A stretch of DNA of 64,000 nucleotides from an uncultured virus (IMG/VR IMGVR_UViG_3300020572_000004) (lineage: Duplodnaviria; Heunggongvirae; Uroviricota; Caudoviricetes): IMG/VR virus record IMGVR_UViG_3300020572_000004; one strand, 5' to 3'. Under the pieces are notes generated by a model that had not been told where the DNA came from, did no database searches, and saw only the letters and a program-made list of their open reading frames with translations. Shown one piece after another: positions 989 to 53,020 of this stretch. Each line of letters begins with the position of its first letter. Positions within the stretch are counted from its first letter, which is position 1. Both the position numbers and the translations under genes were made by a program.

Positions 989-1062
989 ACCCTTCTCCGG
1001 GATTTGAACCCGGGAATCTCCAACATATCATGTCGGCGCATTACCATAATGCTATAGAAGGT
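989..1062 (-). tRNA. tRNA-Ile(GAU)-like cloverleaf without CCA, embedded in a larger stem (945-1096)
   Basis: D-arm GCAT-TATGGTA-ATGC, CCGAC-ATGATAT-GTTGG, T-arm CCGGG-TTCAAAT-CCCGG; no CCA. Confidence 0.55.
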
Positions 1063-1345: not shown

Positions 1346-1445
1346 TAAAAATTTGAATCCGTTCTGGAATTTCACCAGCGCCATATCATAACCTTGATAT
1401 TGTGGAGCTTTTCCCTAGACACGAAAAGCGGCTGTTCATACAAAT

Positions 1446-1531
1446 TGGTGGGCAGTCTGGGGAACGATCCCAGCGAGCCTTGCGGCGTCAGATTTACAGT
1501 CTGAACCGTCTCCTTAACGGTATACCTACCC
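1446..1531 (-). tRNA. tRNA-Tyr(GUA)
   Basis: TCAGA-CT-GTA-AA-TCTGA arm, long variable arm, CCA. Confidence 0.92.
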
Positions 1532-1887: not shown

Positions 1888-2473
1888 TTTGATTATTGCG
1901 ACCACTGGTCTTGCAGTCGCTCGCCGCAATAATCAAACGTGCTATTAAAATTTAAAGGCCGTACTGATCGCACGTTTAACTCACCGCCTTGATCAGCTGG
2001 ATGAGCACCTAAAAGTGTTTTCAGTGAAGTTTTACTTGTGAACGGCTTCAACTCAAAGCGAGGAGCGGAATCACATTCTTCTTGTTTGGTACCAGGGACT
2101 GAATGCTCCTGGGTTTCAAAATCAAAATGTTGTCAAAGAAATGTTGTGGTCCAAACATGATTGTCACTCAACATGACCTCAATGATTTTAACTAGGGCTT
2201 CTCATTCCGAGGCGGTAACCTCATTTAGAGCGTAGTGATTAACGGAACGGATTTTCACCGTTCAGCAGGGTTATTAGCCCTTCGCCTAGCAACAATCATA
2301 TTTGGAGAACAAGCTACAATCAAGACTTTGCCTTGAAGGAATCGCATCAGCCGAGGTTTTGAATCTCAACCAGTTTGATCGTGTTGTAATTGTAAACTAA
2401 TTTCTGCAACTTGTAAACAAGAAAGTATTATTAAATCCAGATCTTATTTAGCTTCGGTTTGGGGAATTAGTTT
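1888..2473 (-). ncRNA. Large structured non-coding region (one large RNA or several RNAs)
   Basis: No ORF; nested long stems (1888-1900/1925-1937; 2150-2164/2292-2306; 2394-2402/2465-2473); lies directly downstream of promoter 2488-2516. Confidence 0.55.
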
Positions 2474-3098: not shown

Positions 3099-3173
3099 TG
3101 GTCCTCCTGGTTGGTGCTGACCCAACTACCCGCCCCTTATAAAGAAGCCGCTCTTCCGATGAGCTACAGGAGG
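3099..3173 (-). tRNA. tRNA-Ile(UAU)
   Basis: GCTTC-TT-TAT-AA-GGGGC arm, CCTCCTG/CAGGAGG-A-CCA acceptor. Confidence 0.85.
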
Positions 3174-3367
3174 TTTTGAAAATTTGTGAGTTGCGCATTG
3201 GTGTGCGCTAAGGGACTCACGGCTCCATATTTAAACTTACTGTCATTGCATCTCTTTTCAGATCCAAGCCGTTCAACCACGGTCGTTACCTTGTTTGTAG
3301 CACAAGGCGCGCATTGAGATTTTGAAAAAATGTTGGGCAACTTGTTGTTGCCGTTTGTTATGCGATT

Positions 3368-3600: not shown

Positions 3601-4296
3601 TTAGATTGCTACAACAACAAGTTTTTGTCCATTGCCTACAGAGAACAGGTCTTCATTGTCACTATCACCAAATTCATATTCCTTAATGTCAGCATTGGTC
3701 AAGAGGTATATGACACACGTGCTAGGAATCAAAATGCGAGTAATACCAGCATCATCAACGTCTGCTTCTGCGGTTTTAATATCGGCTGCTGTAATATCAA
3801 CATTGTTAATCTTAGAGAGTGTTTTAAGCGCAACTTCTTTAATTTTAGCAACAGTACCTTTAACCGGTTTTACTCCAGCAATTTGTGCTTCAAATGCGCC
3901 TTCAACGTCAGAAGATGTAACCTTATCAATAGGCTTAGCTTTCATAAGATTGTCTTTATAGCCATGAAGACCAACCAACATCCCATTATTATACCATGAG
4001 AATTGTATCACAATGTGCGGAGACGAAGGAGTATCTGCATCACTTTTTTTAACTCTGACGCTTAAATCGCCATCATCTTTAAACCAACCTAATCTATCTT
4101 TAGCAGCCGGATACCAATCTACAGTCAAATTGTGTTTATCGCAAAACTTATCAATTATAGACTTTACTTCTTTCTTAGAGAGTTCATTTTTATCACCATT
4201 ATCCTTATATGAAAAAGCTTCGGTTAATTGGTTTCTTTGTTCTGCTAACATTGCACGGTATGCGTTGGCCGCTGTTGATATATTGTTGTTGTTCAT
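3601..4296 (-). CDS. Putative internal head protein (AYRAMLAE leader family)
   Basis: Shared leader ISTAANAYRAMLAEQ; upstream TATAAATA late promoter. Confidence 0.65.
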   Translation of the reverse strand: MNNNNISTAANAYRAMLAEQRNQLTEAFSYKDNGDKNELSKKEVKSIIDKFCDKHNLTVDWYPAAKDRLGWFKDDGDLSVRVKKSDADTPSSPHIVIQFSWYNNGMLVGLHGYKDNLMKAKPIDKVTSSDVEGAFEAQIAGVKPVKGTVAKIKEVALKTLSKINNVDITAADIKTAEADVDDAGITRILIPSTCVIYLLTNADIKEYEFGDSDNEDLFSVGNGQKLVVVAI

Positions 4297-4320
4297 ATAC
4301 TTTATTTATATAAGTTGTTG

Positions 4321-4464
4321 TTACGCCTTTACAATCTTTGGTCGTTTACCACCAGCTTTTTCAATGGCATCGGCTGCTTCTTCAAGAGAGGCGTATGTTT
4401 GTTCAGCTAACATTGCACGATATGCGTCAGCTGCTGTTGGTGGGATTGAGATGTGGTCGTTCAT
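4321..4464 (-). CDS. 47-aa leader-family microprotein (absent from the ORF track)
   Basis: MNDHISIPPTAADAYRAMLAEQTYASLEEAADAIEKAGGKRPKIVKA*. Confidence 0.7.
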   Translation of the reverse strand: MNDHISIPPTAADAYRAMLAEQTYASLEEAADAIEKAGGKRPKIVKA

Positions 4465-4474
4465 AGATTGTAGT

Positions 4475-4978
4475 TTATTTAAAAGTCTTAAGATCTGCTT
4501 TTGCTTTAGCGAGCACTGCTTTACGTGAGCTTAATTGAGTCTTAAGAATATAATTATTATCATCACGAGATTCAATTTGTTTTTGCAATGATTCAACATT
4601 ATCCTCCAATTCATCAATGAAAGCACGTTGCAATAGCTTTGTCATTTCACCTTGCTCCATTAAACCCTCTTGAATTTCAATCATCGCATTGATATGTTCT
4701 TTAATTTTTTTGCGATAATATACAATAACCGTTCCAGCTTGATGATGGCCTGAACCATGACCGCTATGGCCTTCAATTGAATCATAGTCTTTTATTGCCA
4801 CATCTAAGCCGTTTTGAGCCGATGAAAGCGCTTTAAAAGATTTCTTTAAGTTGTCAACTGAAATTATATACTTACCTTCTGAAAGCACTTCATGTGCAGC
4901 TTCTTCAAGAGAGGCGTATGTTTGTTCTGCTAACATTGCACGATATGCATCGGCTGCAGTTGAGATATTGTTGTCCAT
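4475..4978 (-). CDS. Putative internal head protein (leader family), coiled-coil
   Basis: Same leader; TATAAATA upstream. Confidence 0.65.
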   Translation of the reverse strand: MDNNISTAADAYRAMLAEQTYASLEEAAHEVLSEGKYIISVDNLKKSFKALSSAQNGLDVAIKDYDSIEGHSGHGSGHHQAGTVIVYYRKKIKEHINAMIEIQEGLMEQGEMTKLLQRAFIDELEDNVESLQKQIESRDDNNYILKTQLSSRKAVLAKAKADLKTFK

Positions 4979-5008
4979 AGATTGTAGTTTATTTATATAA
5001 TTAGATTA

Positions 5009-5818
5009 TTAGTTACTCTTTACGCTCATACCCTTCATAATCTCTTTGATTTGTTCAAAGTTTGCAAGGCGCGCAAGAACATGTACAATGTAATCAACTT
5101 TATTGTCAGGAATTTTTTTAATGACTGCCTTCAATTGCTTAAGCTTAACTTTAGGAGGATTAGAAGCAAATCCATAATCAGGCGCTTCAGTTTCTTCAGC
5201 TATAGAGGAATCATATGATTCGCTATAGTCATTTAAAATTTCCTCGTCACTGTCGTCAGTACGCATCCACATATTAACAAATTTAGCTAACTTGCTAAGA
5301 TCGCCTTTAAGTTCAATATCAACAGTTTTGTCATAACGGTTGTATTCACCACCAAGAACAGTAAAGCCATGAGTCTTACCAAGAGTTTTAGCCTGAGCCA
5401 TAATTTTATCTTCGTTTGACCCAGGAAATGGAACAGTCAATGTGACCATCTTTCCTTCATTTATAGAGGAATCATATGATTCACTATAGTCATTTAAAAT
5501 TTCTTCGTCACTATCGTCGGAGCTCATCCACTTATTAACAAATTTAGCTAACTTGCTAAGATCGCCTTTGATTGTGACATATACTGCTTCATCATAGCGG
5601 TCATATTCACCACCAAGAACGGTAAATCCATTCTTAACACCAATCTCTTTAGCCTGGGCGAGAACTTTTTTCTCGTTGGAGCCAGGAAATGGAATACTAA
5701 GTGTAACCTGTTTTACTTCGGTTAGCGCAACTTCTTTAAGAGAAGCGTATGTTTGTTCTGCTAACATTGCACGATATGCGTCAGCTGCTGTTGGTGGGAT
5801 TGAGATATTTGGATTCAT
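5009..5818 (-). CDS. Putative internal head protein with a tandemly duplicated domain
   Basis: Same leader; two copies of VTL.PFPGSNE...DSDEEILNDYSESYDSSI. Confidence 0.7.
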   Translation of the reverse strand: MNPNISIPPTAADAYRAMLAEQTYASLKEVALTEVKQVTLSIPFPGSNEKKVLAQAKEIGVKNGFTVLGGEYDRYDEAVYVTIKGDLSKLAKFVNKWMSSDDSDEEILNDYSESYDSSINEGKMVTLTVPFPGSNEDKIMAQAKTLGKTHGFTVLGGEYNRYDKTVDIELKGDLSKLAKFVNMWMRTDDSDEEILNDYSESYDSSIAEETEAPDYGFASNPPKVKLKQLKAVIKKIPDNKVDYIVHVLARLANFEQIKEIMKGMSVKSN

Positions 5819-5832
5819 AGATTGTACCTTAT

Positions 5833-6204
5833 TTATAAGTAAATGTTATTGGGTTCGCTTGAAATAAGCGCCGCATCGGTGTCTTTAATGTTTTTAGTAA
5901 CAGTAAACCAGCGTCCTTTTTCATCGGCATCAATTTCAGCTAGGCCAGCGTCATCAAGATCCTCACCAGTCGCAACATTTACGCTATACCACTTTTGCAC
6001 ACCAAGTGCGCCTAGCTTACTAGCTTTGCCAATAAGCTTGTATGGGCTAACCTTATATAGTTCGTCATCGTCAGGAAAGTATATGTAACCATCCTTAATG
6101 ATTTGAGATTTAATTGCAGCCTCGTCCAATTGCGTTTGTTCGGCCGCCATCGACGCATCATAAGATTCTTGAGCCATTTGACGATATGCAGTTGTGATAT
6201 TCAT
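5833..6204 (-). CDS. Putative internal head protein (divergent leader)
   Basis: MNITTAYRQMAQESYDAS; TATAAATA upstream. Confidence 0.6.
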   Translation of the reverse strand: MNITTAYRQMAQESYDASMAAEQTQLDEAAIKSQIIKDGYIYFPDDDELYKVSPYKLIGKASKLGALGVQKWYSVNVATGEDLDDAGLAEIDADEKGRWFTVTKNIKDTDAALISSEPNNIYL

Positions 6205-9529: not shown

Positions 9530-9964
9530 TCAAATTAAATTTGGAAATGCAGCACGTACTAAAGACTCCGTAAGCAATGGATACAATTCAGGTAGCTTTT
9601 TATCTTTAGCTGCAATAATTATAATAGCGTCTTTTGCATGTGCTCCCTCAATAAGACGAATAAACAATGTTTCTTTACGAATACTAGACAAACGATCATT
9701 TCGTTTCAATAGGCTTGGCAAAATTTTAATTTGTTGTTTTAATGGAGAAGGTTGCAATCCCGCTGCGTTAGGATCTGGATTGTATGGAGGAGCTCCTGCT
9801 GGAAGATCCAAATGAAGGTCAGGTTTGAATGCTGCCTGCAAAATCATTTGAACTGGTTGTGTAAAATTGTTTCTTAAAACCTCTACACGTTCATCAAGAC
9901 TTGTAGTTTTTTCAAGCAACTCAAATACCTCATGTGGTAACCTATCATTCATTCTTCTAATCAT
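9530..9964 (-). CDS. Conserved T4-like hypothetical protein (DUF6433-like)
   Basis: LPAGAPPY, RKETLFIRLIEGAHAKDA; position next to rnh. Confidence 0.7.
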   Translation of the reverse strand: MIRRMNDRLPHEVFELLEKTTSLDERVEVLRNNFTQPVQMILQAAFKPDLHLDLPAGAPPYNPDPNAAGLQPSPLKQQIKILPSLLKRNDRLSSIRKETLFIRLIEGAHAKDAIIIIAAKDKKLPELYPLLTESLVRAAFPNLI

Positions 9965-29037: not shown

Positions 29038-30219
29038 TTAAATTTTAAAATCATCAAACTTATTAGCACGACCAGCATTAGTTCGCCCTGCAGCAAAAGG
29101 AGTTTGCGGAGCAGAGTGTGAAGAGTCATCAGCCATAATATTTGCGGTAGGATCGCTCACATCATACAGTCTCATCTTTGCTAGATCAACACCAATTGTA
29201 AATCGTTTATTGGTTGTTGGATCATTGTAACGATTCTTGAGTTGCTTTACCATTATTTGATTCATCTTGTCAAGTTGTTCAGTACGAATAAATGCAATCA
29301 TCAAGTCAGCCGTTGCAGGTAGTCCAAAACTTTCGCTGGTATCCGTAATTTCAATATCTGACGATTGAAAACCCGACCGCGTAACTTGAGTTGCACTCCA
29401 GATGGGTACATTAAATTCAACAGCCAATCCACGAATCTCTTCAGCAATACTTTTGATAAGACTGTATGTATTGACGCTTCCGCTCAATCCTTTCATGCGG
29501 CTACTTGCGCAAATGTTTAGATAATCAATATAAATGATGTCAGGAACAAACTTCTTTTTCAATTTGAGTTCAAGTAGCAATGCGCGGAAGTGACCGACAT
29601 GTGCACTTGCGGTTGGATATTCTTTGACAACAAGTTTACCTTTGGTTTTATCGCTGATACCTTTGACCTTTGTATTGAATGATGCTTTAGTCAAGTCCTT
29701 CAACTGATCAATACGTACATCAAAAAGATTGGCATCAATACGCTCAGCAATCTTTTCTTCGGCCATTTCCATTGTGATATACAATACATTGCGACCTTCT
29801 GATAGTGCAGCACTAGCCATATGACACATACCCAAACTTTTTCCGCAACCAGTATTATGTGAAGAAACACCATCAGTGTAATACCGATGATTATCATGCT
29901 CAACCTGAATATCAACGATTGGAATTCGCTTTCCTGTTTTTGTAACAATACCAATTTGGTATCCATTTTCAGTTAGATACTGTTGTTTTTTAAGAACTAA
30001 ATCTTTTGCGTATTGCCATCCGTCAATGGTTTCAAACAAGTGATTTTCATTAACTCGAATAACTTTTCCACTATCAAGTAGTAAAACATATTCATCCCAG
30101 ATTCCTTTGTCAACAAATGCTGATACCGGAACAAACCCATCGGGTGAATCTACTTCTATTGTGTATCCTGCATTCAGGAGCTCTTCAATTTCTTTAATTT
30201 TAATAATTTTTTCGGTCAT
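29038..30219 (-). CDS. 41: gp41 replicative helicase C-terminal part preceded by a 122-aa split-intein C-fragment (29854-30219)
   Basis: Intein motifs NENHLF, IVDIQV and SSHN, then TGCGKS, YITMEM, IDYL, SATQ, TSESFGLPATAD, QLKNRY. Confidence 0.92.
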   Translation of the reverse strand: MTEKIIKIKEIEELLNAGYTIEVDSPDGFVPVSAFVDKGIWDEYVLLLDSGKVIRVNENHLFETIDGWQYAKDLVLKKQQYLTENGYQIGIVTKTGKRIPIVDIQVEHDNHRYYTDGVSSHNTGCGKSLGMCHMASAALSEGRNVLYITMEMAEEKIAERIDANLFDVRIDQLKDLTKASFNTKVKGISDKTKGKLVVKEYPTASAHVGHFRALLLELKLKKKFVPDIIYIDYLNICASSRMKGLSGSVNTYSLIKSIAEEIRGLAVEFNVPIWSATQVTRSGFQSSDIEITDTSESFGLPATADLMIAFIRTEQLDKMNQIMVKQLKNRYNDPTTNKRFTIGVDLAKMRLYDVSDPTANIMADDSSHSAPQTPFAAGRTNAGRANKFDDFKI

Positions 30220-30272
30220 ATAAAGGTGTGATTTGTATAAATATAATGTTAGCTGGAACAAGAATCAATCTT

Positions 30273-31088
30273 ATGAAATTTTACGCTCAAATCTATTATA
30301 ACATCTGTAATGAAAATGTAAATAACAAAATTCATTATTGTAAAGGATCAAACATACATAAGCATCATATCATTCCCCGTCATGCGGGTGGTGGAGAAGA
30401 TGAAAGTAATTTTACTTACCTTAGTATTAGACAGCATATAGCAGCACATTTCTTATTGTGGAAAATACATGGTATGGTTAATGATTTGCGATCAATGCAT
30501 ATGCTAGGAGCAAAATTAACATATGAACAAAGACGTATTGTTGGCAAATGGTGTTATGAGAATAAGATCGGAATGTTTTTAATCGGTAAGGAAGAGCGAG
30601 CTGAGATATCACGCAGAGGAATTGAGACACAAATCAAAAATAAACTAGGTATTCATAATCCAGAAAACTTTTCAAAATTTGCATCACTTGGTGGAAAAGC
30701 TTCAATAATTTCACCTAATAACCCATGGGCATATTGGGCCTCAAAGGAAGGGCAATCTGCTAGAGCACATTTGGGTGGAAAATCACACATTGGTAAATTA
30801 TGGATTCATAAAAATGATGTTATAACACGGTGTCTTAATACCGAAATTCAACAAAAAATTGATGAAGGATGGCAATATGGTATGAAAGATGGTGGAAAAG
30901 AATATGTGAATAACGGAGAGAAAACATTTAGAATTGAAACCAATAGGATATTCGGATTGCTTTTACGCGGTTGGCAATTAGGAAAAGCACCCAATTACCA
31001 ACCTGATCGCAGACGGTCTAAGAAAGAATTTTCTTATGAATCCTTACTCGAATTGGAGTCTCAGGGTGAACACAGCCTGCCAAAATAA
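30273..31088 (+). CDS. Free-standing HNH homing endonuclease inside fractured gene 41 (antisense)
   Basis: HKHHIIPRHAGG..E.SN...QHIAAHFLLWK; plus-strand TATAAATA at 30236-30243; start may be 30246. Confidence 0.88.
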   Translation: MKFYAQIYYNICNENVNNKIHYCKGSNIHKHHIIPRHAGGGEDESNFTYLSIRQHIAAHFLLWKIHGMVNDLRSMHMLGAKLTYEQRRIVGKWCYENKIGMFLIGKEERAEISRRGIETQIKNKLGIHNPENFSKFASLGGKASIISPNNPWAYWASKEGQSARAHLGGKSHIGKLWIHKNDVITRCLNTEIQQKIDEGWQYGMKDGGKEYVNNGEKTFRIETNRIFGLLLRGWQLGKAPNYQPDRRRSKKEFSYESLLELESQGEHSLPK

Positions 31089-31659
31089 TGTTGAGCGTCT
31101 TGCGAGGAATACCTCCGCCTGTAATGGTATTAAGCATTTCAAGGTCAAAGGCAATCTTATCTTCGGTCTTGTGATAAAAGTCATAGCGGCTTTCAGCATT
31201 CTCAAGATAGTCATGTCCAACATTTGTATCAAAGGTAACGCTCAATGCATTGCTAAGAATGGTTGGAATGGCGCCTTCGGTCTGATCTTTGCTTTTGCCG
31301 TCAATAATACTAACGGCTTCCATAATTGCAAGATGTACTGCGCGATCCTTACACCACTTTTCAGTGTTGTCCACTAGCCAATCATAGTCAACACTGGCAG
31401 GACTATCAATATCACGAATGCTGCTTAGCACTTCGTGATGGTCATTGCGATTAACATAGTCGCTATTTTGAAATTCAATGTCTAGGACACTGCTAGTTGG
31501 CAGCTTGTTGTACTTGCTGATAAATGACAAGATCAATTCATACAATACTTTATGCTGTCCTTCAAAGTATTCGGGTTTTAAATGAGGAAGCGCTTTGCGC
31601 GTAAACATTTCATTTTGTATCAGGTTCTTAATGATTATTTCCTCAAGATTCTTTTGCAT
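31018..31659 (-). CDS. 41: gp41 helicase N-terminal part ending in an 18-aa split-intein N-fragment (31021-31074)
   Basis: FDTNVGHDY, LNTITGGGIPRKTLNIILAG then CVHPETPIRVRIHKKILS*. Confidence 0.92.
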   Translation of the reverse strand: MQKNLEEIIIKNLIQNEMFTRKALPHLKPEYFEGQHKVLYELILSFISKYNKLPTSSVLDIEFQNSDYVNRNDHHEVLSSIRDIDSPASVDYDWLVDNTEKWCKDRAVHLAIMEAVSIIDGKSKDQTEGAIPTILSNALSVTFDTNVGHDYLENAESRYDFYHKTEDKIAFDLEMLNTITGGGIPRKTLNIILAGCVHPETPIRVRIHKKILS

Positions 31660-31951
31660 CGTTGTTTCCAATTTTAAATTCGCTTTGTGATAATAGATGA
31701 TTTAATACGTCTCCGATATGATTCTTAAATTCAGAGTCTTCGTCTAGCGATTCCTTAAGCAGCCCTTCTGGAGTGCTTTCAATCTTATAGACAAATGAAA
31801 CCTTCAAGACATCATTTTCTTTGTCCTCAGTGAGGCGGGTGCGTCCATATGTATAGATCACACCCGCCCAACGTCCAGACAATAATTTTATCGAGTATTG
31901 ATCACTATGTAAATCATTTTCGACAAAAATATAGTCTTTTTTCTCAGTCAT
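31643..31951 (-). CDS. gp40-like head vertex assembly chaperone
   Basis: Synteny uvsX-40-41 and size. Confidence 0.55.
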   Translation of the reverse strand: MTEKKDYIFVENDLHSDQYSIKLLSGRWAGVIYTYGRTRLTEDKENDVLKVSFVYKIESTPEGLLKESLDEDSEFKNHIGDVLNHLLSQSEFKIGNNDAKES

Positions 31952-32522
31952 CTGTTTGTGTATCAGGCGATTCTTCAAAGGTGATTGCACTCTCAGGAAC
32001 GCGATCAAGATCAACTTCAACGTCATTCATCATGTCGCGCAGGCCGATGGTATACTTGTTTTTGAGATATTCCGCAAAGTCAGTATTCTTAAATACAGTC
32101 TCCCAGAATTCTTTAGTCATGGTTTGAGCAGCACGCAGGTTACCAGTCAACTCAACATCCTTTGCAATGTCCCATGCTTGGTACCAACCATTCTTTGGCT
32201 TGCGAACATAGCCACCAAGAATAGCAATATCCAATAGGCCGCTCCATTTTTGAACGCCACCTTCCCAGCTTACACTGATTGGAATTTTACTTTTTTCTTT
32301 AACAAAGCGACTCTTTTCTACATTGATTACAAAGTGATAGCCTTGAATTTCAGTACCATCTTTATCTTGTTGGCGACCAATAATCCAAACATTGTCCGCA
32401 CTATACATGATGCCGGTGTTATGCGTCACAACACCATTCTTAAGAATATAGTGTTCAGCATCTTTAACGCTAAGGTCATATACTTTTTGCCGCCCTATTG
32501 ATTTAATTTCTTTAATTTTCAT
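31944..32522 (-). CDS. uvsX: UvsX C-terminal part preceded by a 35-aa split-intein C-fragment (32418-32522)
   Basis: MKIKEIKSIGRQKVYDLSV...NGVVTHN then TGIMYSAD, KSRFVKEK; own promoter at 32531-32559. Confidence 0.92.
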   Translation of the reverse strand: MKIKEIKSIGRQKVYDLSVKDAEHYILKNGVVTHNTGIMYSADNVWIIGRQQDKDGTEIQGYHFVINVEKSRFVKEKSKIPISVSWEGGVQKWSGLLDIAILGGYVRKPKNGWYQAWDIAKDVELTGNLRAAQTMTKEFWETVFKNTDFAEYLKNKYTIGLRDMMNDVEVDLDRVPESAITFEESPDTQTDD

Positions 32523-32567
32523 TATGTTATATTATAATATATTTTCTTCTGTTTGTAAAGGTCTTTT

Positions 32568-33257
32568 TTAAACGTAATTCCATTTACTCCATTGTGTATG
32601 ATCGGACTTAATTCGGCGTGATATAACGGCTCTAGTTAAATTTAAAGCATTTACGGCATCTTTAATACAGTCATACTGTATTTCGTTAATCATAATTGAT
32701 TTTGCACAAGGATTATTTCCACCAGTTCTTTCTTCTGAATATCTCTTAAATAATGCATCGTGCTTTCCTGTATTATATACATCTTGAATTTTTGTTTTTC
32801 TAATTTTTGCAGCTTCTTCAGACATGTTTAATCGTTGCTTTTTATTCATTTCTGATATTATAGACGGATCTGTATTAGATATTCTTTCTTTTACCTTTAA
32901 ACTAATGTTTTCATTTCTATTCACTATTTCTTCATCAGATAAAGATTCATACCACCCAAACCAACCTTTCCTGGTAATGCCGTCATAATCATAACCAGTT
33001 TCAGGAATTAAATTTGCCCATTCGCTACTTTCAACAACATCATATTTAGCTGAGGCTAAAACAGCGGCATTTCGCAATTCTTCTTTTGTTTGGTATGTTC
33101 CTAATAACTCAGTAAAAATATCTTTGCCATGCGTCTTTATGTGTGACTTCCAGTAATGCCCAGAACCGCTATACGATTCATAGTCATCTTTGGAAGTGAC
33201 GCACAGATATTTAAGACCTGTTATGTTATGCGTTTTTATCATCAATTTAAATGTCAT
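32568..33257 (-). CDS. Seg-like (degenerate GIY-YIG) homing endonuclease inside fractured uvsX
   Basis: KTHNITGLKYL...YSGSGHYW..H..HG...WANL..E; C-terminal NUMOD1-like HTH; TATAAATA upstream. Confidence 0.75.
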   Translation of the reverse strand: MTFKLMIKTHNITGLKYLCVTSKDDYESYSGSGHYWKSHIKTHGKDIFTELLGTYQTKEELRNAAVLASAKYDVVESSEWANLIPETGYDYDGITRKGWFGWYESLSDEEIVNRNENISLKVKERISNTDPSIISEMNKKQRLNMSEEAAKIRKTKIQDVYNTGKHDALFKRYSEERTGGNNPCAKSIMINEIQYDCIKDAVNALNLTRAVISRRIKSDHTQWSKWNYV

Positions 33258-33304
33258 AGGTATGTGTGGTTAACATACTTATTTATACAATTGACGATTT
33301 TAAC

Positions 33305-34219
33305 TTAAACCAATACTTTACAGTCTTGAGCAACCACCAAATCTTTAGCTTCAACCCATTGGTCGCCAATCATGAACTTATGGGTATCACTACAAATGAC
33401 AGTATGACCGTCTTCAAAGGTAACTTCATAGCATTCGGGCTCACCGTCTTCAAGAGTATCAGGATTCCAGACAGCAGTAACTTCCTTAGGCCCATCCAAT
33501 GTTTGAACAGTATCACCTTCAATAAAGTCTTCAACGGCTTTGGTTGTTCCATCAGGCAGAGTAATAAGAGTTCCAGCAGCAACACATCCTCCGCTAACAA
33601 TTGACTTAGGGAAAAGTCCGATCTCGAGGTAGGTATGGTTGATTGCAAGCAAGCAAATGTTTTTCATTGTAAGGTATGGCGTAACCATACGGAACAATCC
33701 TTTAAGCGCTTTAGCACGAGTCATGTCGGCAACGCTCTTTTCATTCATTGCATCTTCCAATTCTTTTTTGGATGCAAGGTTACCAACACTATCAATAACA
33801 ATAATTACCTTGTCCTTGCGCTCCATTTGCTCAAGTTGATTTACAATATCAAACTTGAGCTCTTCAATATTCTTGATAGGAATATGCAATACTCGGTTGG
33901 TGTCAATACCAAAGCTTTCGAAGTATTGCTGAGGACTACCAAATTCGCTATCATAAAACATAAGGCAAGCATCTTTATGTTTCTTAAGATATGCACCTGC
34001 CATAAGCAATGCAAAGCTGGTCTTAAAGTGCTTTGACGGACCAGCAAGAACGGTAAGGCCGCTGGTCAATCCACCGTCAATACTGCCGCTTAATGCGACA
34101 TTGACCATTGGTACACTTGTGGAGGTGATGTCTTTTTCAGCATAAAAATCGCTGTCAGCCAAGACGTCGGCTTCTTTAATTCGGCAATTCTTTTTTAGTT
34201 TTTCTAGTACAGATGACAT
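33305..34219 (-). CDS. uvsX: UvsX N-terminal part ending in a 93-aa split-intein N-fragment (33308-33586)
   Basis: AGPSKHFKT, YDSEFG, IDSVGNL, IVSGG then CVAAGTLI...CSDTHKF...W. Confidence 0.93.
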   Translation of the reverse strand: MSSVLEKLKKNCRIKEADVLADSDFYAEKDITSTSVPMVNVALSGSIDGGLTSGLTVLAGPSKHFKTSFALLMAGAYLKKHKDACLMFYDSEFGSPQQYFESFGIDTNRVLHIPIKNIEELKFDIVNQLEQMERKDKVIIVIDSVGNLASKKELEDAMNEKSVADMTRAKALKGLFRMVTPYLTMKNICLLAINHTYLEIGLFPKSIVSGGCVAAGTLITLPDGTTKAVEDFIEGDTVQTLDGPKEVTAVWNPDTLEDGEPECYEVTFEDGHTVICSDTHKFMIGDQWVEAKDLVVAQDCKVLV

Positions 34220-51835: not shown

Positions 51836-53020
51836 TTAGTCCTTGTAAGGATCATACACATCGGCACCTGCCATAGCAACGCCTAACGGCTTAAGCTGAT
51901 GTATGATTTGCACAGTATCTCCTTGAGCAGCCAACACATCGGTCAATCGTTTGTAAGCATGAGGACTTTCATCACAGCCTCCACCACGCAGCTCAACATT
52001 TGCATCGGCTAGCCAAGTGTCCATCATGTGCTGTGAAACTTTACCTTCACTGACACGAACTTTTTGCCCACCTTTCCATTTGCATTTGCCGGCGGCTTCA
52101 GTGCGGCTCATAACACGACCAGCACCATGAACGGTTGAATAGAGTGCGGCCGCCGACAAGTCGCTTTGCGCTCCTTGCAAGATAACACTGTTTTCTCCCA
52201 TGGTACCGCCAACAAATCCTCGTTGCCCTGGCCAAGCTGGCGTTGCACCTTTGCGAACAACCCATAAGTCAACACCAGCGTGCTGTTCACGCCAAGCATA
52301 ATTGTGGTGATTGTGAACTTCATCAATGATGTCAGCCCACAGGATACGTGCAACTTCGGCACACACCCAATCACGACCAGCATATGCATAATCGCCAGCA
52401 AGTTGCATTGCAGCGATATACTCACGACCAAGATCGGTATGCACATCAAGCAACACTGGATCCACAAGGATTCCGTCAGTCCCACCACCAGCTTTGATGT
52501 AGTGCGAAGCAATTTTGTGACCAAGACCGCGGCTGCCAAAGTGAACGCCAATCCAGATACGCTCTGCTTCGTCTGCAAAGATGTCAACATAATGGTTGCC
52601 ACTGCCTACGGTGCCTAATTGACCGCGAGCCATATCTTTAAGAGGACGCAGCATTTCAATGTCATCCCACTGATCAGCATCAAACAGTGCATGGTCAACT
52701 TTGGTTTTGTTTACACGACCAATACCAAACGAGACTTTTGACACCACTTCATCCATGATGCGTGAAATATCACCCTTCACATCAGAAAGAGTAGCGTTGG
52801 TTAGCACTGCTTTGTTGCCGCAGCCAATGTCAAAACCTACGCCGCTTGGCGAGATGTGGTCACGATAAGCAATCACACCGCCCACAGGAACAGCATAGCC
52901 TAAGTGATGGTCAGCCATCAGCGCAGCAGCATGTGCACCTTTGCACAAGCAGTTGTCCATTTGATCCACTGCATTTTGCAATGGGTCTCCAAATACTGAA
53001 ATGTTGTTTAAAATTTTCAT
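51836..53020 (-). CDS. rtcB: RtcB RNA 3'-phosphate/5'-OH ligase
   Basis: DHHLGY, DIGCG, GNHY, HFGSRG, HNHHN, RKGA, HGAGR, DESP.AYK. Confidence 0.95.
   Translation of the reverse strand: MKILNNISVFGDPLQNAVDQMDNCLCKGAHAAALMADHHLGYAVPVGGVIAYRDHISPSGVGFDIGCGNKAVLTNATLSDVKGDISRIMDEVVSKVSFGIGRVNKTKVDHALFDADQWDDIEMLRPLKDMARGQLGTVGSGNHYVDIFADEAERIWIGVHFGSRGLGHKIASHYIKAGGGTDGILVDPVLLDVHTDLGREYIAAMQLAGDYAYAGRDWVCAEVARILWADIIDEVHNHHNYAWREQHAGVDLWVVRKGATPAWPGQRGFVGGTMGENSVILQGAQSDLSAAALYSTVHGAGRVMSRTEAAGKCKWKGGQKVRVSEGKVSQHMMDTWLADANVELRGGGCDESPHAYKRLTDVLAAQGDTVQIIHQLKPLGVAMAGADVYDPYKD

Follow-up and report, generated by a model that had tools for sequence, protein, structure and literature searches.

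The region between tRNA-Met and promoter 1 of a T4-like phage (positions 1888-2473) contains, on its minus strand, a conserved RNA of about 140 nt (2158-2297), which recurs in distant phages with the same boundaries, secondary structure and strand, is non-coding throughout and has varying neighbours. It is very probably a structured RNA maintained by selection and apparently constitutes a new, undescribed small family of phage RNAs. A first-pass annotation of the sequence had proposed that 1888-2473 encodes a single large ornate RNA of about 600 nt, either of the GOLLD or ROOL kind or of a new class. What holds of this proposal is that the minus strand of a tRNA array encodes, downstream of a phage promoter, a structured non-coding RNA outside the Rfam classes; the size and kind do not hold. 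The region is a row of smaller units, not one giant RNA (Table 1): a single 600-nt unit is unsupported because there is an internal second promoter, because at least two independent motifs appear separately elsewhere, and because no Rfam match was obtained. Relatives split the stretch, the unit that is conserved being about 140 nt, and the covariance models of GOLLD and ROOL matched neither the stretch nor the homologous loci.

The window (the whole 64,000-nt stretch of DNA that was analysed) corresponds to the opening 64 kb of a T4-like phage genome that measures 133 kb and has 39% GC, and lake and freshwater metagenomes hold DNA identical to it. Region 1888-2473 falls close to the beginning of a tRNA array on the minus strand, for which ARAGORN predicted 13 tRNAs in the window; the array runs beyond the contig end, and an overlapping contig carries 22 tRNAs and a tmRNA. 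Two tRNA calls in the window (989-1062 and 3099-3173) were odd, one being a weak tRNA-Ile(GAT) and one having a TAT anticodon; tRNAs with the latter anticodon are present in loci L004 and L509 too. Phage-encoded tmRNA genes were found in related arrays (L510, 11582-11904; L508, 13919-14249), and their tag peptide is a possible clue to the host. Several minus-strand ORFs at 3601-6204 share an N-terminal motif (A..AYRAMLAEQ..) and had no PHROG match. The genes for a DnaB-like helicase and a UvsX-like recombinase (29038-31671 and 31944-34219) are each present as two ORFs, with a homing endonuclease splitting the UvsX-like gene; these splits are likely introns without an Rfam call. An RtcB ligase gene is located at 51836-53020 of the phage genome.

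Table 1. Units and structural elements in and around region 1888-2473 (window coordinates)
Feature	Position	Strand	Remarks
Promoter 1, TTTACA-17-TATAAT, extended -10	2488-2516	minus	Kept in both relatives
Variable spacer between promoters, outside the conserved RNA	2418-2487	minus	60% identity to both relatives; 2394-2473 z -1.1
Promoter 2, TTTACA-17-TACAAT, predicted start near 2382	2389-2417	minus	Hexamers kept in both relatives
Lineage-specific 5' piece, ~75 nt	2313-2385	minus	95-99% identical in close relatives; not found in distant loci; z -0.5 (2310-2392)
Outer closing-stem extension, 5' arm	2299-2312	minus	Pairs with 2144-2157; window lineage only
Conserved ~140-nt RNA	2158-2297	minus	Pair conservation, double changes
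P1 closing stem	2294-2282 with 2176-2162	minus	
P2 hairpin, RGGG/CCCU	2281-2267	minus	
3-bp helix, GCU with AGY	2266-2264 with 2199-2197	minus	
P3	2263-2245	minus	Capped by GG-UGAAAAU-CC
T-loop UGAAA-AU, G-C closed	2251-2257	minus	Invariant in 7/7 (two search patterns required the T-loop)
P4, variable hairpin	2244-2231	minus	
P5, with internal loop	2230-2201	minus	
P5 internal loop	2204-2227	minus	UAMAU (2227-2223) opposite GGAAU (2208-2204), capping hairpin between
P6, bulged G and loop ending AAAUC	2196-2177	minus	
P6 loop, 7 nt	2184-2190	minus	Invariant AAAUC end; invariant bulged G at 2180
Outer closing-stem extension, 3' arm	2144-2157	minus	
Pseudoknot motif, GGAG-Y-N-[UUCAGU 2103-2098]-CCCU ... 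[ACUGAA 2025-2020]-AAA, ~100 nt	2012-2113	minus	
Strong hairpin, 13-bp stem	1888-1937	minus	Peculiar to the window genome, not conserved
tRNA-Met(CAT)	1789-1863	minus	First tRNA downstream of 1888-2473

Secondary structure of the 140-nt RNA

The fold has an outer four-way junction of P1, P2, the GCU/AGY helix and P6, and an inner one of the GCU/AGY helix, P3, P4 and P5, with a single A standing between P5 and the AGY arm. On a plain MAFFT alignment not fitted to the fold, 95.9% of 314 cells pair, and double changes occur in 17 of the 45 pairs (six in P1, two in P3, four each in P4 and P5, and one in P6). None of 500 shuffles matched the pairing level, the double-change counts or the covariation score, 95 of 500 equalled the pair-type count, and slid controls gave 37-46% pairing; these comparisons are to be read in view of the fact that kinship alone can beat shuffles without structure and that the seven sequences amount to about four independent lineages. 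Unaided, RNAalifold recovered P1-P5 with a covariation term of -7.0, placed P6 in another register and omitted the GCU/AGY helix, so that the junction geometry rests on invariant pairs together with one G-C to G.U and one U-A to A-U change; the G-C and A-U pairs closing P1 and the GCU/AGY helix have zero double changes. The sense strand folds better in every lineage (z of -2.7 to -3.8, versus -1.3 to -2.3 for the antisense strand), and all six frames contain stops in all seven sequences.

Invariant columns number 63 and take in the T-loop, the P6 loop, the internal loop and paired junction bases, and the end loops of P2, P4 and P5 vary freely; the conservation of the invariant motifs is overstated, since the search patterns required some of them. 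The 15-bp stem that had been pointed out at 2150-2164/2292-2306 was found to pair at 15 of 15 positions on the minus strand, with one U.G, and to contain a C.A mismatch on the plus strand; all 15 pairs are kept in both close relatives, where one U-A is replaced by C-G. Among the shorter helices read by eye inside this stem, GAGG/CCTC, GAACGG/CCGTTC and AGGG/CCCT were found and are conserved, and CTAGG/CCTAG was not confirmed, as 7 of its 35 cells fail to pair (80% pairing) and it has zero double changes; in the homologues its 5' arm is paired with 2162-2176 instead. Having a well-supported fold and defined ends, this compact family is small enough to be made, probed and solved.

Distribution of the family

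The family comprises seven distinct sequences in four lineages, with 61-74% identity between lineages. Only 2158-2297 recurs in distant phages, the similarity within the stretch being confined to about 2170-2300 and ending at the closing stem. A pattern scan of metagenomes yielded four homologous loci among 118 matches, leading to L148 and L146, and a scan of viral sequences yielded two (L290 and L292) among 82, in addition to L235, which is identical to L146; the matches of both scans were mostly due to chance. More members probably exist, since the metagenome scan covered 45 of the 64 parts of the collection. Model R1, which recovered three of three known members, gave one weak match over 426 non-member loci (L049, 18.7 bits, E 0.035). 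One of the chance pattern matches, at about 1490-1600 of L315, resembles by eye a group I intron core and is unrelated to the 140-nt family.

No Rfam model matched the element at gathering level, only weak chance matches being obtained at E up to 10, and none matched over the homologous loci either; the detection of the tmRNA and tRNAs in related arrays indicates that the Rfam scan works on such DNA. Resemblances to RNase P, group I and II introns, the hairpin ribozyme, SRP, tmRNA and FMN, judged by eye, were dropped because of misfitting motif order and the lack of an Rfam match. Searching cultured phage genomes with blastn returned chance-level fragments or nothing, and 0 of 88 pattern matches in GTDB bacterial genomes were homologous to the 140-nt RNA. 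Model R1 matched 0 of 4 and 0 of 151 bacterial genomes sampled from one phylum, which was chosen by a guess at the host and searched without a positive control. The RNA is present as a single copy in the phage genome; the related phage L076, with 74% identity in a ClpP-like protein, shows no copy in 20 kb, which may be due to array position alone. Paper searches returned no description of the 140-nt RNA, and the searched files of the Fremin 2023 supplement gave no match to it; an earlier computational listing, as in the alignments of PMC10690425 or PMC5737381, is possible.

Remainder of region 1888-2473

Much of what had been read from the sequence in this region was borne out: it lacks a long ORF, the overlapping frames being just 30-52 aa, and the promoter proposed at 2516-2488 is found on the minus strand with 11 of 12 consensus positions and an extended TG, one of 25 similar sites genome-wide. 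Both promoters are kept in close variants of the region, which are of the L004 type (91% identity) and the L006/L074 type (83%), and promoter 2, which belongs to the same class as promoter 1, is likely the promoter nearest to the 140-nt RNA. In folding, the minus strand exceeds its shuffles (z -3.2, 0 of 20) and the plus strand does so less clearly (z -1.45, 3 of 20). By segment, 2144-2312 (z -4.7) and 1888-1937 (z -4.9) account for this signal. Two of the further domains that had been suggested, 2310-2392 and 2394-2473, fold at shuffle background (Table 1), and two segments are borderline, namely 1957-2047 (z -2.0) and 2085-2115 (z about -2). The 13-bp stem at 1888-1937 is perfect as described, but conservation fails, since only 7 of 13 pairs are kept in L004 (45% identity over the hairpin) and L074 has no counterpart.

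The close relatives are 93-100% identical to the window from 2388 to 2144, and over 2115-2012 the two close variants have identities of 99% and 61%. In L074, the equivalent of about 2005 is immediately followed by tRNA-Met, and the last ~140 nt of the region have no counterpart; in L006, the rows below about 2011 align to its tRNA-Met and beyond, and therefore those counts were left unused. P1 in the window lineage is longer by about 14 bp and has the 75-nt piece in front of it. The high identity of 2388-2144 makes a form of about 250 nt possible in this lineage; it could be closed by a 5-bp helix with invariant pairs. Alternatively, the identity may reflect recent exchange.

A second motif and other small units

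A pseudoknot motif with the pattern GGAG-Y-N5-GU-CCCU, a variable insert and then AC-N4-AAA was found in three copies on the minus strand of the window (2012-2113, about 3175-3235 and about 50-125; near 2109, 3226 and 98), in three copies in L074 (near 8658, 9392 and 10939) and once in L076 (near 11105). Over eight aligned copies, 90.9% of 88 cells pair and three of the six pseudoknot pairs have double changes; 0 of 500 shuffles matched the cell counts, and 93 of 500 matched the number of changed pairs. This motif, for which no Rfam match was obtained, is independent of the 140-nt RNA and is a candidate second RNA family.

Other small units were noticed in the arrays. At 1350-1447 (minus strand), a non-tRNA unit of about 95 nt with a T-loop-like hairpin (GGUGAAAUUCC) is situated between tRNA genes; it is 97% identical in L074, is absent from L072 and folds at shuffle level. 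A non-coding block at 3241-3288 (minus strand), having 85-88% identity over 33-48 nt in the distant arrays L508 and L509, stands behind a promoter at 3396-3368 and is possibly another small RNA. A non-tRNA cassette of about 85 nt is by eye identical in L074 (about 9575-9660) and L292 (about 1217-1300); its sharing by otherwise distant arrays suggests that cassettes move between phages. The lesson from this T4-like stretch is that long ORF-free regions of such arrays can be rows of small cassettes rather than one ornate RNA.

Genomic context and expression

In L146, L290 and L292, tRNA or tRNA-like genes stand on both sides of the element, which is bordered by the same U/A-rich spacers as those around the tRNAs. 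In L148, the surrounding phage region has an endolysin and small genes, and the 2 kb on either side of the element are free of tRNAs; the element begins a few bases downstream of a promoter-like sequence identified by eye (TTGCAC-17-TATCTT), has a U run at its end and is followed by a 68-aa ORF. With a promoter on one side and a small ORF on the other, it is here placed as a 5' leader would be. A cis riboswitch is disfavoured, because L148 is the only one of the four lineages with a directly following ORF. An antisense role within the phage genome is also disfavoured, as no antisense match of at least 12 nt to the 140-nt RNA was found elsewhere in that genome.

Contigs from metatranscriptome runs X19, X20, X21 and X23, which were picked for containing the core, cover it; since contigs lack strand, ends and level, they are no evidence of transcription or of the ends. 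Neighbouring genes lacked coverage in three RNA runs, which is uninformative. In one X20 contig, 2140 is linked to 2330 through 19 other letters, which by eye resemble 2311-2329. This single contig appears to come from a variant without the stem-closed module; another X20 contig has the module, and the skipping of the core (window 2141-2329) would reflect either a strain variant or an excision product.

Possible function and alternatives

We know of no job for GOLLD, ROOL or the T4 stable RNAs, and phage tRNA clusters are thought to serve counter-defence and translation support. Our working proposal, which we favour with less than even confidence, is that the 140-nt RNA is a movable unit which is transcribed from the adjacent phage promoter, is cut free and serves as a compact trans-acting binding surface for a host protein. 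Its gene would be a single movable unit among the phage tRNA genes and would be transcribed with the tRNAs from promoter 2 or promoter 1, presumably early in infection. Nucleases cut the spacers in phage tRNA clusters, and such enzymes may release the RNA at its AU-rich spacers as they do the neighbouring tRNAs. The T-loop would be engaged in tertiary docking: since T-loops have a gap accepting an intercalating base (PMC4810234), the likely docking partner is either the P6 loop or the internal loop of P5. The invariant loops and junctions suggest, by sequence comparison, a shape-based binding site; as the three end loops vary and the junctions, T-loop and internal loop are fixed, tertiary shape is indicated, not base pairing with a target. 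The putative action would be that of a decoy or scaffold for a host protein, the protein partner being a guess.

We rank this protein decoy or scaffold ahead of, in descending order of probability, tRNA-elbow binding, a ribozyme, a metabolite sponge, a nearly neutral cassette and a 600-nt RNA. A broader idea, possible but not probable, is that a T-loop platform gripping tRNAs, or a riboswitch-like pocket soaking up a host signal, makes the unit a new class of trans-acting RNA, an RNA-only counter-defence or tRNA chaperone cassette of unrelated freshwater phages. For tRNA-elbow binding, which we regard as unlikely, the two A-rich loops would interdigitate as a double T-loop platform that protects or helps to process phage tRNAs. 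The interdigitated T-loop motif is described, with more examples expected, in PMC4810234; the T-loop is canonical and invariant, the second loop has the sequence UGAAA-UC in L148 and is UAAAA-UC in the window lineage, and tRNA arrays house three of the four lineages, but the second loop begins with A instead of U in three of seven sequences, a shifted register fails in L148, that locus has no tRNA within 2 kb, and no element pairing with an anticodon or CCA is evident by eye. Somewhat more doubtful is a small ribozyme, self-cleaving or engaged in processing, which would help to break up the tRNA precursor; theta ribozymes provide the analogy and the precedent (PMC10879173). Its size, conservation pattern and site in tRNA arrays would fit, but the RNA has no HDV nested double pseudoknot and no fixed site beside a tRNA 3' end, P1 ties both ends so that an internal cut frees no neighbour, and the Rfam ribozyme models were unmatched. 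Placed below the ribozyme is an aptamer without an expression platform that would sequester a small molecule, for example a cofactor or a nucleotide signal. The gathering of invariant paired and unpaired bases at the junctions argues for it, as does the GG-UGAAAAU-CC hairpin, which we take to resemble the T-loops of FMN and cobalamin aptamers. Against it, no riboswitch model matched even at E up to 10, no metabolic gene is consistently nearby across the loci, and we know of no natural trans-acting RNA sponge of metabolites as a precedent.

A nearly neutral or selfish cassette, the fold of which is kept just for harmless moving or excision from the tRNA transcript, has a low probability: its position varies, X20 contains an apparent core-less variant, other array cassettes are shuffled between phages and ORFs resembling homing endonucleases are frequent in the arrays, but the invariant loops and internal helices exceed what excision needs, and the single genome copy has no linked mobility gene. 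Lowest of all we place the reading of 1888-2473 as one large ornate RNA with the 140-nt module as a domain. Apart from the folding of the whole region and the possible ~250-nt form of the lineage, a perfect 9-bp helix (2463-2471/1878-1886), of which L004 keeps five of nine pairs with one double change, and a helix at 2394-2402/2465-2473, with seven of nine pairs and one double change in both relatives, speak for it. It is disfavoured despite these long-range helices because a promoter lies within the region and its parts occur separately, three other lineages having the core by itself and the pseudoknot motif being found alone elsewhere; furthermore, L074 lacks the last ~140 nt, the X20 contig skips the core, and the covariation term of the three-way consensus is only -0.9. 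The long-range helices may be leader pairings in a precursor.

Comparison with known systems

ROOL RNAs are 581 nt long on average and have six junctions plus three pseudoknots (PMC5737381), and GOLLD is often >800 nt and forms a 14-mer cage (PMC12286853). Like ROOL (PMC12286853), the 140-nt RNA is a phage-encoded structured RNA near tRNA genes, in three of its four lineages; unlike ROOL, it has no covariance model match, and 140 nt are conserved in distant phages instead of a unit of ~580 nt. The phage tRNA-island context is shared with GOLLD, the stretch in the window adjoining tRNA-Met, but the GOLLD model with its conserved 3' domain gave no match and covarying palindromic loops were not seen by eye. 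Theta ribozymes are HDV-like and abut tRNAs, with a cleavage site no more than about 5 nt from a tRNA end (PMC10879173), and are likewise small structured RNAs of phage tRNA regions; unlike them, the 140-nt RNA has a fully nested fold with no nested double pseudoknot carrying a catalytic C in J4/2, and the nearest tRNA in the window is ~300 nt off.

With the RNase P specificity domain, T-box stem I and the L1 stalk, as treated in PMC4810234, the RNA shares a canonical T-loop, an A-rich loop and a tRNA setting; the T-loop definition given there, a pentaloop closed by U...A, is fitted by the first loop in seven of seven sequences and by the second in four of seven. It differs from interdigitated T-loop tRNA binders in its inconsistent second loop, in having no specifier, antiterminator or catalytic domain, and in the lack of a model match. 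Unlike cis riboswitches (FMN, cobalamin and others), it matched no aptamer model, and an ORF comes directly after it just in L148. The T4 species 1 and 2 RNAs (RNA C and D) and the T5 stable RNAs are small stable RNAs of about 100-140 nt, of unknown function, encoded in tRNA clusters. Although blastn against cultured phages was negative, it is to such small stable RNAs of phage tRNA clusters, for example T4 RNAs C and D, that the 140-nt RNA is nearest in kind.
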